A stretch of 64,000 bases of DNA, from positions 1 to 64,000 of the forward strand of contig JAQBVF010000017.1 of the NCBI GenBank assembly GCA_027623675.1, given 5' to 3'. Shown piece by piece: positions 57,472-63,736 of this stretch. The stretch comes from Chloroflexota bacterium. GTDB taxonomy: Bacteria > Chloroflexota > Dehalococcoidia > Lucifugimonadales > UBA3495. A program made the translations under genes and the position numbers. The stretch's first letter is position 1. The number at the start of each line of letters is the position of its first letter. The notes below the pieces were generated by a model, which had not been told where the DNA came from, did not search any database, and saw only the letters and a program-made list of their open reading frames with translations.

Positions 57472-57492
57472 CGTACAAACGTTCTATATAAT
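57472..57492 (+). promoter_or_regulatory. Putative LexA (SOS) box next to the -10 of the imuB-dnaE2 promoter
   Basis: CGTAC-AAAC-GTTCT, one mismatch to GAAC-N4-GTTC, followed by TATAAT at 57487-57492. Confidence 0.65.
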
Positions 57493-57599
57493 CCGTCCCC
57501 CACCGGGGAAATAGCCTCAGATAAGGGCCAAAACCAGGCTCTAAATCAGAACATTTCCCGAACTAAAGCCCCCGAACTAAAAACCCGGGACTAAAGCCG

Positions 57600-58799
57600 A
57601 TGACCGACCGTTCCATAGCCTGCATGATCGTCACCCACCTCCCGGTTAAAGCCGAGATGCGCCGCTATCCCCAATTGCGGGGAAAGCCCGTCGTTATCAC
57701 CGAGAGTTACGGTTCCAGGGACCTGGTGCTGGACAGCTCGCCGGAAGCCCAGGGAGTGACCGCCGGCATGCCACTCGCCGAGGCCATGTCCCGGTGCAAA
57801 GAGGCGTCCCTGGTCCAGGCCGACGCGCCCTACTACAACGGCGCCTTCGACAAGCTGGTCAAGGCCCTTGAATCGCGGAGTCCCATGGTGGAAAAGGCCG
57901 GACTTGGCTGCACCTACGTGGGTCTGGACGGCTTGGAGCTTATGTACGGAGGCGAGGCGCGAGTTATTGCGTCCCTGCTCCAGGCGGCGCCCCAGGAGTT
58001 CAATCCCAGGGTCGGCGTGGCCACGGGCAAATTCCCGGCCTACGTCGCCGCGGTGACCACCAAGGGCGGGCGGGCCACCAAGGTGCCCTCGGACGCGGCC
58101 GGTTCGGCGGGTTTCTTGAACGCACTTTCCATCGGACTGCTGCCCATATCTTGGGCCAATAAGACCCGGCTGCACCGCTTTGGCATCCATACCCTGGGAC
58201 AACTGGCGGCCCTGCCGGTGGGTGCGGTCCAGGCCCAATTGGGCACCGACGGCCGGCGCGCCTGGCAACTGGCCAGCGGGGTGGACAACAGCCCGCTCAA
58301 GCCCCACCGGGAGGAGCAGGCGGTGGAAGAATCGCTGACTTTCCCCTCGCCCACCGTCACATGGAGTCCGATCCTGATGGCCCTGAGCACGCTGCTGGGC
58401 CGTGCCTTTGCCCGCCCGGAGGTCGGTGGCCGCTACGTCCGCACCGCCACCATCGAAAGCCATGTGTACCGGCTGCCGCCCTGGGTGAAACGCTTTGGGT
58501 TCAAAGAGGCACTGGGCAGCAGAGACCGGGCCCTGTTCGCCCTGAAGAGCCGGTTGGACAGCGTGACCCTGCCCGGACCGCTGGAAGACATAAAGCTGAC
58601 CCTGGCCGGGTTCACCGGAGAGTCGGGGATCCAGACCAACCTCTTCTCAGACGTGCGCAAACAGGAGCAGCTCAAAGAGATGATGCGCCAGTTGGAAGCC
58701 GTGTTGGGTGGCAAACCGCCCATCTACCAGATGAAGGAGGTGGAGCCGTGGTCGCGCATCCCAGAAAGACGCCAAGCCCTGGTCCCATTCGACCCGTAA
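57600..58799 (+). CDS. imuB: ImuB-like inactive Y-family polymerase
   Basis: Y-family layout (GV..GMPL.EA, RLHRFGIHTLGQLAALP) without catalytic Asp/Glu; clamp-like motif QTNLF; upstream of dnaE2. Confidence 0.82.
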   Translation: MTDRSIACMIVTHLPVKAEMRRYPQLRGKPVVITESYGSRDLVLDSSPEAQGVTAGMPLAEAMSRCKEASLVQADAPYYNGAFDKLVKALESRSPMVEKAGLGCTYVGLDGLELMYGGEARVIASLLQAAPQEFNPRVGVATGKFPAYVAAVTTKGGRATKVPSDAAGSAGFLNALSIGLLPISWANKTRLHRFGIHTLGQLAALPVGAVQAQLGTDGRRAWQLASGVDNSPLKPHREEQAVEESLTFPSPTVTWSPILMALSTLLGRAFARPEVGGRYVRTATIESHVYRLPPWVKRFGFKEALGSRDRALFALKSRLDSVTLPGPLEDIKLTLAGFTGESGIQTNLFSDVRKQEQLKEMMRQLEAVLGGKPPIYQMKEVEPWSRIPERRQALVPFDP

Positions 58800-59260
58800 G
58801 GTCCAAAACCGCCACGGCTAAAAGCACGTCGCCCAAAACCTCAGATTCCATCTCTGAGGCCAATGCCGCCGCCGGGCCCGGAGTCCGGAACACGCGGTTC
58901 CGGCCCATGAACCTGCCTGTGCCCATAGACGTCGCCGTGGACGATGCCGAGCGTCCCGTGTCCGTCACGCTGCCGCCGGCGGCATCTGTCCGCCCGCTGG
59001 GTCCCCGCCGCCCAGCTAGCTACCGCGGTTCCGAGCAGAAAGGCCGAAAGCTAGCAGTCACTTCCATTGATGACCTATGGCAGGTGGACGACGAATGGTG
59101 GCGAGAAACCCCCATCTCCCGCCGCTACTATCTGATAACCGCTAGGCAGATAACCGCTAGTCAGCTAACCACCCAAGCCCCAATCACTCAAGGCGACCGG
59201 CGCCTGACCATCTTCCACGACCAGATAAACCACCAATGGCACTGGCAAAAAGGGGGGTGA
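58748..59260 (+). CDS. Small mutasome-associated protein (DUF6504-like)
   Basis: AAGGAGGT SD then GTG 58748 overlapping the end of imuB; VTSIDDLWQVDDEWWRETPISRRYY...TIFHD...W. Confidence 0.65.
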   Translation: MVAHPRKTPSPGPIRPVRSKTATAKSTSPKTSDSISEANAAAGPGVRNTRFRPMNLPVPIDVAVDDAERPVSVTLPPAASVRPLGPRRPASYRGSEQKGRKLAVTSIDDLWQVDDEWWRETPISRRYYLITARQITASQLTTQAPITQGDRRLTIFHDQINHQWHWQKGG

Positions 59261-59263
59261 GGG

Positions 59264-59335
59264 GTGCTAGGTTATCAAAGTAACTTGAAGCCCATCAGCC
59301 GCCAGTTACGCTCGGAAATGACCGATTGTGAGCAG
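59264..59335 (+). pseudogene. 5' fragment of a DUF559 (Vsr-like) endonuclease gene, truncated at the repeat array
   Basis: Reads MLGYQSNLKPISRQLRSEMTDCEQ, resembling DUF559 N-termini (Y..LK..AR.LR..MT.AE), then runs into repeats and stops at 59383. Confidence 0.55.
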
Positions 59336-59380
59336 CCACCCGCATATGTCATCCTGAGCAGCCACCCGCATATGTCATCC
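59329..59380 (+). repeat. Tandem repeat, 2 x 26 bp of the element left end
   Basis: TGAGCAGCCACCCGCATATGTCATCC twice. Confidence 0.9.
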
Positions 59381-59760
59381 TGAGCCAGCCGCGGCGGCGA
59401 AGGATCTACCAATCCCGAGGAACCGCAGAATGAACCATTACTACGTGTACATCATGGCCAGTTACCAGGGAACTCTATACATAGGAATGACCAACGATTT
59501 ATACCGCAGGGCATACGAACACCGTCATAAGTTAGTGCCCGGATTCACCCAAAAGTACAACGTGAACAAGTTGGTGTATTACGAGGAAACATCGGACGTG
59601 GAGTCAGCCATCGCCAGGGAAAAGCAGATTAAAGGATGGCGAAGGAGCAAAAAAGCATCATTGGTGGCATCATCGAACCCACATTGGGTGGACTTGGCTG
59701 AAAGCTGGTATGAAGACCGAAGCTTGGCAGACCCTTCACTACGTTCAGGGTGACATATGC
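59368..59760 (+). mobile_element. GIY-YIG nuclease element bounded by palindromic terminal inverted repeats
   Basis: Left end GCATATGTCATCCTGAGC...GCGAAGGATCT; right end AGACCCTTCACTACGTTCAGGGTGACATATGC; encloses one gene. Confidence 0.7.
59430..59753 (+). CDS. GIY-YIG nuclease family protein
   Basis: YYVYIMAS...LYIGMTNDLYRR.YEH, AIAREKQIKGW; catalytic Arg/Glu present; stop codon lies inside the right inverted repeat. Confidence 0.92.
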   Translation: MNHYYVYIMASYQGTLYIGMTNDLYRRAYEHRHKLVPGFTQKYNVNKLVYYEETSDVESAIAREKQIKGWRRSKKASLVASSNPHWVDLAESWYEDRSLADPSLRSG

Positions 59761-59780
59761 AGAGCCGTGTTCGGGCTGCC

Positions 59781-59939
59781 TATGTCACCCTGAGCCAGCC
59801 ACCCTCCTATGTCACCCCGAGCCAGCCACTCGCATATGTCATCCTGAGCCAGCCACCCTCCTATGTCATCGTGAGCAGCCGTTCGCATATGTCATCCTGA
59901 GCAGCCGTTCGCATATGTCATCGTGAGAAGCCATTCGCA
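59781..59939 (+). repeat. Tandem array of six 26-27 bp left-end units
   Basis: TATGTCA(T/C)C(C/G)(T/C)GAG(C)CAGCC... at 59781, 59808, 59835, 59862, 59888, 59914. Confidence 0.9.
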
Positions 59940-60115
59940 TATGTCATCCTGAGCCAGCCGCAGCGGCGAAGGATCTGCCAAGTCCGAGGACTGCAGGATT
60001 AACCGCTATTACGTGTCTGCCATGACCAGTTAACAGAGGACTAGATGCATAGGAATAACCGATCATTTACATCGAAGCTTGGCAGACCCTTCCCTTCGCT
60101 CAGGGTGACATATGC
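59937..60115 (+). mobile_element. Non-autonomous, internally deleted copy of the GIY-YIG element (MITE-like)
   Basis: Same two inverted ends; interior aligns to the SD and first ~25 codons of the GIY-YIG gene, joined to CGAAGCTTGGCAG. Confidence 0.75.
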
Positions 60116-60197
60116 AGAGTCGTGTTCGGGCTGAAAATAATAGCATCGAGGTTAGGTGCCTGGAGTAGAGCATGCTTTTGCGGCGAGCCAGGATTAG

Positions 60198-60277
60198 TAT
60201 GGCATCCCGAGCCAGCCACTCACATATGTCATTCAGAGCCAGCCACCCTCCTATGTCATCGTGAGAAGCCATTCGCA
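60198..60277 (+). repeat. Tandem array of three left-end units
   Basis: Units at 60198, 60225, 60252. Confidence 0.85.
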
Positions 60278-60450
60278 TATGTCATCCTGAGCCAGCCGCA
60301 GCGGCGAAGGATCTGCCAAGTCCGAGGACTGCAGGATTAACCGCTATTACGTGTCTGCCATGACCAGTTAACAGAGGACTAGATATGCATAGGAATAACC
60401 GATCATTTACATCGAAGCTTGGCAGACCCTTCCCTTCGCTCAGGGTGACA
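60275..60450 (+). mobile_element. Second non-autonomous copy, nearly identical to 59937-60110
   Basis: Differs from copy 1 by a 2-nt insertion (AGATATGC vs AGATGC) and loss of the terminal TATGC. Confidence 0.75.
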
Positions 60451-60532
60451 GATATAGCTACCATTCTTGGATGCTCAGATCCTTCATCCAAACCCTAAAT
60501 TCAGACCGCTGACCACTAACGCCTAACCCACC

Positions 60533-63500
60533 ATGTACGCCGAACTACATTGCCACAGCAACTACTCCTTCCAGGAAGGCGCCTCCTCCGTGGAGGACCT
60601 GCTGGTGCGTGCCCGCGGCTTGGGATACCGGGCGTTGGCGCTGACCGACCACGACAACCTGTGTGGGGCCATGCACTTTGCCCAGGTGGCCAAAACCCTG
60701 GGCATGCAGTCCATAACCGGCGTGGAGATGACGATCAAGGGCCCGGACGCGTGTAAAGACGGCCAGGGCAACTCGCATCTGACTTTTCTGGCCGAGGACC
60801 AAGACGGCTACAGCCAGCTTTCCAACCTGATCTCCTACTCCTACGTGGCCGGAGGCCGCAGGGACCCGGCCCTGGACCTGAAGTACATGCCGGACCGCGT
60901 CGATGGCCTGCTGCTGCTGACCGGCTGCCGCGCCGGACGGCTGCCCAGTTTGTTAACCGAAGGCAGATTCGCCGAGGCCGAGACCCAACTGCGGCAGTAT
61001 CTGGACTGGTTCGGTACGGACAACGTCTTCGTTGAGTTGCAGCAGAACCTGGTACAGGGCGACACCCAGCGCAACCGGCGGCTCATCGACCTGGCCCGCA
61101 AGCTGGGGGTCGGCACGGTGGCGACCAACAACGTCCACTACCACGTACCGGACCGCCACCGCCTGCAGGACGCCCTGGTCTCCATCAAGCACAACCGCAG
61201 CTTGGAAGAGACCCACAAGGAGCGCCGGGCCAACAATCAGGCCCATCTCAAGTCTCCCGCCGAGATGGCCGCCCTGTTCGCCGAATGCCCGGAGGCTATC
61301 GAGAACACCCTCCGCATCGCCGAGCGCTGTTCTTTCGACCTGACCAAGGACCTGGCATACCGTTTCCCCGACTACCCCGTTCCGGCGGGCGCCACGCCCC
61401 AGAGCCACTTGGAAGACCTATGCCTCCAAGCCGCCGAACGCCGCTATGGGGGCGTCAACCAAAAGGTCAAAGACCGCTTGGACGAAGAATTGCGGCTGAT
61501 CGGGAAACACGAGCTGGCCGGGTTCTTTCTGATCTACTACGAGATCATCCAGATGGCCCGCCAGATCATGATTGAGATGGGCCTTAGCGACGCCGAGATA
61601 CCCCTGGAAGAACGCCCGCCGGGCCGGGGCCGGGGCTCGTCGGTGGCCATGCTGGTCGGCTATCTGATCGGTCTTTCCCACATCGACCCCTTGGAGTACA
61701 ACCTGTCTCTGGACCGGTTCCTGTCCGACGACCTGGGTTCGGTGCCCGATATCGACCTGGACTTCCCCCGCAACATCCGGGAGGAACTGATCATCCGGGT
61801 GCACCGGAAGTGGGGCTGGGACCGGGCCGCTCTGACCGGCATGATCAGCACCTACCAGATGAAGGGCGCCGTCCGTGACTTGGGCAAGGCCTTGGGTCTG
61901 CCGGCCCAGGGCGTGGACAAGCTGGCCAAGCGGGTCGATTCCCATGATGCCAAGGAACTGGAACTGGAGATGCTCCAACTGCCCGAGTTCCGGGACATGG
62001 TGGACGCTCCGGGCTGGCGCGACCTCATCGAGATGGCGGCCCAGTTGGACGGCTTCCCCAAGTACCTGGCCCAACATCCCGGGGGCATGATCATTAGCTC
62101 GTCGCCTTTGATCGACACGGTGCCGGTGCAGCAGGCAGCCATCGCCGACCGCTACATCTGCCATTGGGACAAGGACAGCATCGACCAGGCCGGCTTCGTG
62201 AAGATCGACTTCCTGGCCTTGGGCGCCCTTTCTCAGATGCAGGAATGCCTGCTTTTGATCGAAGAACGCGAGGGCAATTACATCGACCTGAGCCGCATCG
62301 ACTTCAATGACCGGGCCGTCTACGAGAGCATGCACCAGGCCGACACGATAGGAATCTTCCAGGTGGAGTCGGCCGCCCAGATGCAGACCGTGCCCCGCAT
62401 CAAGCCTTGGAACCTGACCGACATGGCCTACGAGGTGGGCGCCGTGCGGCCCGGAGTGGGAGTGAACGACGGCGTGACCCAGTTCATCCAGCGCCGTTCC
62501 GAGGGCATACCATGGGACTATGACCACCCCTTGGAGCAACGGGCCTTGGAGCGCACCCTGGGCATAATACTGTTCCAGGACCAGGTTAACCAGGTGGCCA
62601 TGGACGTGGCCGGCTTCACTTCATTGGAGGCCGACCAACTGCGCCGGGCCTTCGGGAAGCGCAACAACGATGCCATGATTCAGCATTACTGGGAGAAGTT
62701 CCGGAGCGGGGCCGCCGGACTGGGCGTTTCCGAAGATGCGGCCCAACGTATCTTCAAAAAGTTCAATGGCCACTATATGTTCCCCGAGTCCCATGCCTTT
62801 GCCTTTGGCGCGACGGCCTACCACATGGCCTGGCTCAAGTATTACCACCCGCTGGAGTTCTACGTCGCCATCTTCAACCAGCAGCCCATGGGTTTCTACA
62901 ACACCGAGACACTGAAAGAGGATGCCAGACGCCACGGCATCACCGTCTTGAATCCAGATATCAACCACAGCCGGGAGAAGTGCGTCATCAAGGACGAAAG
63001 CGTCTTGCTGGGGCTGCGTTACGTCCGTGGCCTGGGCGACGCGGCGGCATCTCAGGCGGTGGCGGCCAGAGACAGAGGAGGGGCGTTCAAGGACCTGGCC
63101 GACGCCATGGAACGCACCGGACTGCGGCGGGAGGCCATCGAGAACCTGGTGACTGCCGGGGCCTTTGACGGCTTGACGGCCAAGACTGCCAAGGCTGGGG
63201 CAACGCCAAGGGCCAATGAGAGAACGGGCCGGCGGCAGGCGCTGTGGGAAACGGGCTTGCGTTACCGGCCGGTCAACGCCCAACTGCCCCTGCTCCTGCC
63301 CGTGGACCAAGACATGGCCGAACTGCCCGAGCAGAGCGAGTGGGAGACCATGGGCGAGGAATACCGCATCATGGGCCTCTACCCCAAGGGGCATCTGATG
63401 GCCCTGGCCCGCCCTCACCTGCGGCCGGGGATACTATCCAGCCGTGATGTGGAGTCCAGGGCCGACGGCGATGTCGTCACCGTGGCCGGGTTGGTGATAC

Positions 63501-63736
63501 GCCGCCAGCGCCCCCTGGCCAAGGCGGTTTTCCTCACGCTGGAGGACGAGTTCGGCCATATCCCGTTAGTCGTTTGGCCCGGCGAGTTCGCCAAGTACCG
63601 GCAGGTCATCAGAGAGCCGCTGCTGGTCATCACCGGCGAAGTCTCGCGCCGGGATGGCACCATGAATATCGTGGCCAAGCACGTGGAGCCCATGCCGGCC
63701 ATGGACCATCTCCCCAAAGCCAAAAGCTGGCAGTGA
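60533..63736 (+). CDS. dnaE2: Error-prone DNA polymerase III alpha (DnaE2/ImuC)
   Basis: PHP (YAELHCHSNYSF, ALTDHD), GRGSS, PDIDLDF, AQHPGG, KIDFLALG, FPESHA, OB fold; downstream of imuB. Confidence 0.92.
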   Translation: MYAELHCHSNYSFQEGASSVEDLLVRARGLGYRALALTDHDNLCGAMHFAQVAKTLGMQSITGVEMTIKGPDACKDGQGNSHLTFLAEDQDGYSQLSNLISYSYVAGGRRDPALDLKYMPDRVDGLLLLTGCRAGRLPSLLTEGRFAEAETQLRQYLDWFGTDNVFVELQQNLVQGDTQRNRRLIDLARKLGVGTVATNNVHYHVPDRHRLQDALVSIKHNRSLEETHKERRANNQAHLKSPAEMAALFAECPEAIENTLRIAERCSFDLTKDLAYRFPDYPVPAGATPQSHLEDLCLQAAERRYGGVNQKVKDRLDEELRLIGKHELAGFFLIYYEIIQMARQIMIEMGLSDAEIPLEERPPGRGRGSSVAMLVGYLIGLSHIDPLEYNLSLDRFLSDDLGSVPDIDLDFPRNIREELIIRVHRKWGWDRAALTGMISTYQMKGAVRDLGKALGLPAQGVDKLAKRVDSHDAKELELEMLQLPEFRDMVDAPGWRDLIEMAAQLDGFPKYLAQHPGGMIISSSPLIDTVPVQQAAIADRYICHWDKDSIDQAGFVKIDFLALGALSQMQECLLLIEEREGNYIDLSRIDFNDRAVYESMHQADTIGIFQVESAAQMQTVPRIKPWNLTDMAYEVGAVRPGVGVNDGVTQFIQRRSEGIPWDYDHPLEQRALERTLGIILFQDQVNQVAMDVAGFTSLEADQLRRAFGKRNNDAMIQHYWEKFRSGAAGLGVSEDAAQRIFKKFNGHYMFPESHAFAFGATAYHMAWLKYYHPLEFYVAIFNQQPMGFYNTETLKEDARRHGITVLNPDINHSREKCVIKDESVLLGLRYVRGLGDAAASQAVAARDRGGAFKDLADAMERTGLRREAIENLVTAGAFDGLTAKTAKAGATPRANERTGRRQALWETGLRYRPVNAQLPLLLPVDQDMAELPEQSEWETMGEEYRIMGLYPKGHLMALARPHLRPGILSSRDVESRADGDVVTVAGLVIRRQRPLAKAVFLTLEDEFGHIPLVVWPGEFAKYRQVIREPLLVITGEVSRRDGTMNIVAKHVEPMPAMDHLPKAKSWQ

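Follow-up and report, generated by a model that had tools for sequence, protein, structure and literature searches.

A small Ssn-type GIY-YIG nuclease gene enclosed by tagged hairpins at the imuB-dnaE2 site of a Chloroflexota genome: a candidate mobiliser of hairpin repeats

In the window, i.e. the whole stretch of 64,000 nucleotides analysed, the region between an imuB-like gene and dnaE2 carries a 381-bp cassette consisting of a single small nuclease gene enclosed by two inverted, GTC-tagged hairpins. Our sequence comparisons assign its 107-aa product with high confidence to the Ssn family of single-stranded DNA (ssDNA) hairpin nucleases, and on balance they incline us to a reading in which this cassette nuclease, and not a transposase, mobilises such hairpin repeats, and does so slowly. 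The proposed mobility of the cassette is supported by empty sites, by cassette remnants at a second locus and by gene-less hairpin doublets with the same ends, and hairpin abundance tracks ssn across 251 genomes of the order. The idea of the initial annotation is not new: Chenal et al. (2025) had suggested that the family is of IS-like origin, and both the IS-like layout and hairpin-specific cutting of ssDNA are in print (PMC11893778). The GA/GA hairpin variant, the mobility evidence and the tracking of hairpins with ssn across the order were not found in our literature searches; these likewise turned up no later paper on the mobility of Ssn and none on hairpin cassettes of DUF559 genes, with most subscription papers lying beyond their reach.

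The region reads imuB-like gene, small ORF, 1.27-kb repeat array and dnaE2, with all genes and gene stubs on the forward strand. The imuB-like Y-family polymerase gene (57600..58799; PF00817, E 8.6e-16) is immediately preceded by three 14-nt tandem repeats (57557-57598), and one LexA-like box lies upstream of it at 57473-57484; LexA-type boxes in the window are at chance level (24 matches, 22.9 expected), and we therefore make no claim of SOS control. The small conserved ORF (58907..59260; 50-62% identity in congeners), which gave no match in Pfam and NCBIfam searches, served as the left anchor for orthologous comparisons, with the dnaE2-type error-prone polymerase gene (60533..63736; NF004225, E 1.6e-270, below the curated cut-off) as the right anchor. 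Compared with congeners, the small ORF holds a short repeated insert (ataaccgctag twice, 59121-59200) that makes it longer. The array is bracketed by stubs of two other genes. On its left lie 24 codons from the 5' end of a DUF559 nuclease gene, truncated by the hairpin array (59264..59335; 71% identity to residues 2-25 of an intact congener gene, E 2e-5, which itself matches PF04480 at E 6.8e-34). On its right lie the last 13 codons and the stop of a four-helix-bundle gene (PF05635/TIGR02436; 60471..60512), which match the intact gene of locus L009 at its 3' end and are followed by decayed heptamer repeats.

Within the array, all parts of which are on the forward strand except the right hairpin, a tandem half-hairpin (flank, GTCA tag and first arm only; 59346..59371) stands 5' of the left hairpin (59374..59407), followed by the ssn gene (59430..59753) and, on the reverse strand, the right hairpin (59729..59754) with its GTC tag outermost. 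Then come six tandem half-hairpins (59782..59940), a decayed cassette copy with an internal deletion (U2, 59943..60109), three tandem half-hairpins (60199..60278; repeat family 93%) duplicated along with the next unit, and this unit itself (U3, 60281..60449), a tandem duplicate of U2. The half-hairpins in the array number ten, each of 26-27 nt; like the two bracketing gene stubs, they are absent from the initial annotation. The ORF, sequence and repeats of the initial annotation were all recovered at its coordinates. Its 393-bp unit (59368-59760) does have inverted ends, which are 16-nt repeats with 94% complementarity, but the boundaries had to be redrawn, the conserved part running from GTC at 59374 to GAC at 59754, i.e. 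381 bp. We do not count the GCATAT flank in the end, because relatives lack it, as does the right end of U3, and it is local only. The right hairpin indeed encodes the last residues and the stop codon (DPSLRSG plus stop), and the two units of about 180 bp described as having the same ends measure 179 bp (U2, 59937-60115) and 181 bp (U3, 60275-60455). The array was recovered in contigs of two independent-looking runs (X1, X2) of one study, of which X1 may be the source sample. An Rfam scan of 59200-60600 returned one match, at chance level.

The protein contains PF01541 only (E 1.3e-15), which makes it a stand-alone single-domain GIY-YIG protein of fewer than 150 aa, and its motifs are intact as first described, with Y7, Y17, R26 and E64 invariant in 43 sequences. 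It is 53% identical (45/85 residues, E 6e-20) to an SsnA-like homolog of N. gonorrhoeae, which lies amid nine NTS matches and was used as a proxy for N. meningitidis SsnA; by way of this proxy the homology is well below E 1e-10 and extends over at least 75% of the protein. Y7, Y17 and E64 align with gonococcal residues having the 11 + 47 spacing of SsnA Y6, Y17 and E64, and mutation of any of these three kills SsnA (PMC11893778). The gonococcal homolog (L165, ~1490-1775) shows no in-frame start in its record, a 2.17-Mb entry filed as a plasmid. In a quick tree (96 columns, many forks open) the query and gonococcal proteins share a 65-row clade (SH-aLRT 97) with six outgroup rows outside it, and the canonical-NTS proteins are nested within this clade (support 97). 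The closest homologs come from Chloroflexota according to their source labels. The AlphaFold model (pLDDT 90; beyond about residue 90 a short tail is of low confidence) matches the folds of UPF0213, Slx1 and UvrC domains, and searches of the PDB by sequence and by fold returned only UPF0213, Slx1 and UvrC-like matches and no Ssn structure. Among six congeners the dN/dS of ssn is 0.04-0.11, and the gene is under purifying selection.

In each cassette end a GTC tag is followed by a 5-bp stem, which a GA/GA internal loop separates from an inner stem-loop of variable length, the 5-bp stem being ATCCT/AGGAT at the left end, as borne out by arm covariation, and ACCCT/AGGGT at the right. The genome contains 86 tagged hairpins of this type against 0-2 in five shuffles, and the position before the tag (-1) is a T in 72-83% of hairpins. 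Using a search pattern that presupposed no pairing, we found perfectly complementary arms in 46/57 pairs of this genome (mean of 10 with partners shuffled) and in 92/104 pairs near homologous genes (mean of 19). Nearest-neighbour folding energies of the four ends do not beat shuffles (z -0.8 to +0.5); folding models handle sheared GA pairs and GNA mini-loops poorly. The published degenerate SRM motif matched none of the array ends, and the GA/GA-bulged hairpin is a variant missed by that motif, which we file as a variant and not as an SRM/NTS member. Half-copies stack with a clear polarity, on the 5' side of the tag in 27/68 hairpins of this genome (about 17 of these 27 belong to one repeat family) against 0/68 on the 3' side, and in 79 other loci in 45/186 against 9/186. 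This 5' side is the side of the tag where SsnA cuts. Altogether, 17 inward hairpin pairs were counted in the genome, including two ssn cassettes and U2/U3.

The association of nuclease and hairpins, for which a check on homologs had been suggested, proved to be general. We fetched 80 homologous loci from many phyla, 76 of them with enough flank, among which are one congener and two loci (L107, L155) of a single unpublished genome (G072) that is also counted in the copy-number, arm-covariation and half-copy polarity tallies. Inward-facing tagged hairpins were present at both ends in 36/76 homologs and in 0/67 control windows, and at least one hairpin end in 57/76. The GA/GA loop occurs in 76/99 ends of homologous loci and the stop codon falls within the right hairpin in 16 loci, and over the same 76 homologs the published SRM motif was found at both ends in none and at one end in six. 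Thus the GA/GA variant makes the Ssn-repeat association wider than the published motif indicated. Both ends are present at each of the three ssn-clade genes in this genome, and ssn paralogs carry their own matched hairpins. Two more ssn cassettes of the genome each have their own hairpin pair (L026, 833-1181; L027, 809-1264), the copy on contig C2 having stop codons and an 18-nt half-hairpin array. A third ssn subfamily, seen in congeners, has canonical NTS-type hairpins and a single site of its own (L044, L045, L046, L048, L054, L055, L056). In Azospirillum lipoferum 4B an ssn homolog lies between sufB and sufC with hairpin doublets flanking it (L166, 989-1282). A phage collection of 50,697 records yielded one weak ssn match and a plasmid collection yielded matches in 37 records, many of them chromosome-sized; these results give no evidence for carriage on mobile replicons.

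U2 and U3 had been taken as the mobilised, non-autonomous partners of an autonomous cassette; they are instead one old deletion followed by a recent local tandem duplication. Their mutual identity is 98%, against 79% to the intact cassette (U1) over the 5' 137 nt, and they have in common a 213-nt deletion between ACCG microhomologies (U1 59503-59506 and 59716-59719). They were duplicated together with flanking half-hairpins, their interior has no match elsewhere in the genome, and in runs X1 and X2 they collapse into one unitig of about twice the depth. Independent insertions were rejected as their origin, given the one breakpoint, the tandem arrangement with duplicated flanks and the interior without a match elsewhere. 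An intact gene under selection, and the left-arm variant ATCCT that U2 and U3 have in common with this genome, where congeners have ATTCT, would suit a transposon that is active and autonomous and from which U2 and U3 had recently been mobilised as deletion derivatives; the divergence from U1, the shared breakpoint, the confinement to one tandem with duplicated flanks and the absence of young multi-copy cassettes make this highly improbable, and we regard it as largely refuted.

Copy numbers agree with this. A genome has 1-4 ssn copies in a set of 47 and up to six in a set of 251, paralogs in seven multi-copy genomes are 43-85% identical, and neither comparison revealed young, near-identical multi-copy cassettes. 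The three ssn subfamilies occupy one orthologous site each across the genus and dS is no lower for ssn than for dnaE2, hence there is no sign of recent spread, and the active autonomous element of the initial annotation gives way to few, divergent copies at long-held sites.

The imuB-dnaE2 site has nevertheless changed hands. Loci were obtained from 17/19 congeners, and the occupants are the ssn cassette in six, DUF559 in six, the four-helix-bundle gene in two, two lone left ends in one and a contig edge in two. From the DUF559 5' and four-helix-bundle 3' stubs around the array, and from the DUF559 right hairpin that several cassette holders retain, we infer a layering of the site in which the four-helix bundle was followed by DUF559 and then by ssn, each probably overwriting its predecessor. 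The four-helix-bundle gene appears to be the oldest layer and may be a third cassette type; in other genomes (L009, L012, L018) a PF05635 gene with inverted heptamer tandem repeats occurs at the same site. On the dnaE2 tree the occupants are interleaved, which fits one insertion with differential loss as well as allele exchange. Because the site is common to unrelated cassettes, ssn has no fixed link to imuB-dnaE2.

This history bears on whether ssn is a domesticated ssDNA restriction or repair enzyme that trims hairpin-bearing ssDNA in uptake, replication or SOS repair, the hairpins spreading via gene conversion or slippage and being made tolerable, not copied, by the nuclease. The low dN/dS would agree with such a role, as would the fixed sites and low copy number, the position of ssn between imuB and dnaE2 in the same orientation and the reduction of Neisseria transformation by SsnA (PMC11893778). 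However, ssn is broken in 2/6 congeners holding the cassette here (a frameshift in G003, a stop in G016) and missing from the site in at least 9/17, the site is shared with unrelated cassettes, remnants of the cassette lie at a second locus and LexA-like boxes do not exceed chance. We therefore consider domestication unlikely, if less so than the transposon just discussed.

The second locus is the 3' end of mutS. In 18 congeners with both flanks, this site was empty in ten and held doublets in six (two of them degenerate) and remnants of the ssn cassette in two, the sisters G012 and G018, whose deletion breakpoints differ. The 5' part of the G018 remnant is identical at 92/94 positions to G018's own cassette, against 82-94% to others, and its 3' part is just 82% identical. 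In L065, an insert of about 550 bp before the doublet is bracketed by a duplicated mutS 3' end and contains an ORF that looks like the HNH type (family label by eye). Away from this contig, the right-end tail of the cassette was found at ten loci, mostly gene-less doublets of 76-98 bp, so the expected dispersed non-autonomous doublets with the same ends do occur; one such end (contig C26) is identical at 34/34 positions to the right end of U1. The empty orthologous sites that had been asked for exist as well, since besides those at mutS (10/18) two sites at which this genome carries a doublet lack it in 5/5 congeners each. At four further sites, congeners could be resolved in 0/5 (C44), 2/5 (C29), 3/5 (C17) and 2/5 (C3), and the C3 site is empty in G002 and apparently common to G005. 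These comparisons, between congeners too diverged for base-exact junctions, provide evidence that the gene cassette itself probably moved at least once in the genus. No target-site duplications were found at 13 elements, where the longest flanking direct repeats are 3-7 nt, as in random pairs. Neither an empty nor a joined form was present in contigs of runs X1 and X2, contigs being prone to drop rare variants; runs X3 and X4 hold small shares only and their joints, which come from relatives, were left out.

Across the order, 90/108 ssn-positive and 30/143 ssn-negative genomes are hairpin-rich (at least 10 hairpins), in a survey of 251 mostly incomplete genomes, among which related ones do not count as independent; within 11 informative genera, stratified by genus, the odds ratio is 17 (p 7e-5). 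The exceptions are 30 hairpin-rich genomes that are ssn-negative, some of which exceed 150 hairpins, and 18 ssn-positive ones with fewer than 10. HUH transposases are nearly absent from the order, the RAYT/IS200 Y1 transposase (PF01797) being present in 4/251 genomes, 3 of them among the 120 hairpin-rich ones, and not found in this genome (91% complete). On this contig none of the five transposase families tested was found; other contigs of the genome carry DDE, integrase-core and IS110 transposases.

The survey also weighs on the view that the hairpins are MITEs moved in trans by RAYT/IS200, DDE or IS110 enzymes, with ssn as a captured passenger. Besides the other transposase families and the 30 hairpin-rich genomes without an ssn match, such a view can draw on a composite family (family A, 260-355 bp) around hairpin doublets, of which there are 26 matches here, 2-6 partial ones in three congeners and none in 16, so that its roughly 25 copies are largely lineage-specific. 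Family A has terminal inverted repeats of about 22 bp, an inner hairpin doublet and variable arrays of 18-nt half-hairpins (e.g. L192, 940-1245; L194), and its mover is uncertain because the outer repeats are long and fully paired, unlike an Ssn substrate. Moreover, Bertels and Rainey assigned to RAYT the same Neisseria repeats (10.1101/2021.07.10.451892) for which Chenal et al. offered an IS-like origin and an analogy with RAYT/REP as a hypothesis (PMC11893778). On the other hand, the rarity of Y1 transposases among hairpin-rich genomes, the absent target-site duplications, the matching of hairpin sequence to each ssn paralog and the finding of Di Nocera et al. (2013; PMC3733652) that CGTC repeats have no linked transposase render trans-mobilisation improbable.

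Under the reading we prefer, mobilisation by the Ssn nuclease, both nicking and movement are inferred, the nicking by analogy with the hairpin-specific ssDNA cutting of the Ssn family (PMC11893778). The protein would bind its own hairpin in transient ssDNA and, following SsnA biochemistry, nick about 3 nt upstream of the tag (PMC11893778). Since the tags are outermost and on opposite strands, such nicks would fall just outside each end. When the host repairs these nicks, the cassette or a gene-less doublet might now and then be copied into another intergenic site. GIY-YIG enzymes hydrolyse DNA, keep no covalent link to it and cannot join DNA, hence the joining step would fall to host recombination or repair, in keeping with the absent target duplications. 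The same cycle of nicking and repair could generate the half-hairpins stacked on the 5' side, deletions between ends and the U2/U3 duplication, with local duplications and deletions commoner than the rare copying. The arrangement would work like RAYT with REPINs, in that few long-resident enzyme genes would serve many short doublets, by means of another enzyme class.

The DUF559 cassette displaced by the ssn cassette is, as far as its sequence goes, of the same design. In this DUF559 subfamily (e.g. L008, L010, L011, L013, L017, L019, L020), a single gene is enclosed by two inverted hairpins tagged AATCCCC, of which the right one encodes the C-terminus and the stop codon. The inverted tagged pair was found in 47/60 metagenome loci (80 fetched, 60 with enough flank; L233-L312) against 0/24 controls; the query used for ranking has the hairpin-encoded tail, which biases the right end and not the left (49/60). 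DUF559 hairpins are also dispersed in the genus. This parallel suggests that the design is general. We put forward, tentatively, that there are unrecognised transposase-free mobile elements in which a small nuclease gene between tagged hairpins, with its stop in the right one, would spread itself and REPIN-like doublets by nicking and host repair, that they arose at least twice (Ssn GIY-YIG with GTCA tags, DUF559 with AATCCCC tags) and overwrite one another at shared intergenic sites, and that Ssn may be the mobiliser that CGTC-type REPs have so far lacked.

The means by which CGTC-tagged REPs move have been in question since 2013 (PMC3733652), and the two printed leads, RAYT for the Neisseria repeats and a hypothetical IS-like origin for Ssn, differ. 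An order nearly free of Y1 transposases yet rich in hairpins, in which abundance follows ssn, separates the two ideas, and it offers, for direct assay, a cassette of 381 bp and doublets of 76-98 bp. Furthermore, the wider association adds many enzyme-site pairs for ssDNA tools, and the DUF559 parallel points to a substrate that can be tested for a large family whose function is unknown.

Free-standing GIY-YIG homing endonucleases likewise have no joining activity and spread via host repair, with a separate DNA-binding module and an empty dsDNA allele as target. The present protein, in contrast, is a single domain with a short low-confidence tail in which such a module is absent, and its proposed target is the element's own ssDNA hairpin. 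From DDE-type IS and MITEs the cassette differs in having neither target-site duplications nor several near-identical autonomous copies. With REPIN-RAYT systems (10.1101/2021.07.10.451892) it has in common a low-copy, largely vertical enzyme gene and many inverted doublets of about 100 bp, whereas the enzyme is a hydrolytic GIY-YIG and not HUH/Y1, the tag is GTCA and not GTAG, and here there is evidence for movement of the gene cassette at least once in the genus. CGTC-tagged REPs (PMC3733652) resemble our hairpins in the unpaired TGTC/CGTC tag before a self-complementary stem starting with A, in their inverted dimers and clusters, in their position just after genes and in having no linked transposase; those stems have 8-9 continuous pairs and a 4-5-nt loop, whereas ours are interrupted (5-bp stem, GA/GA loop, inner stem) and a candidate enzyme gene lies between the ends. 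The closest system is Ssn/NTS (SsnA, cd10448; PMC11893778), which shares the single-domain GIY-YIG protein of about 100 aa, the catalytic residues, the GTC-tagged hairpins beside the gene and, in print, an IS-like NTS-ssnA-NTS layout; in Neisseria SsnA lowers the integration of repeat-bearing DNA. Empty sites and second-locus remnants, none of which were noticed in the accessible part of that paper, are reported here, and the 5-bp stem with its GA/GA internal loop falls outside the published motif. Finally, whereas whole doublets flank the gene at the gonococcal and Azospirillum loci, here a single inverted pair of hairpins encloses the gene, whose stop codon falls in the right end.
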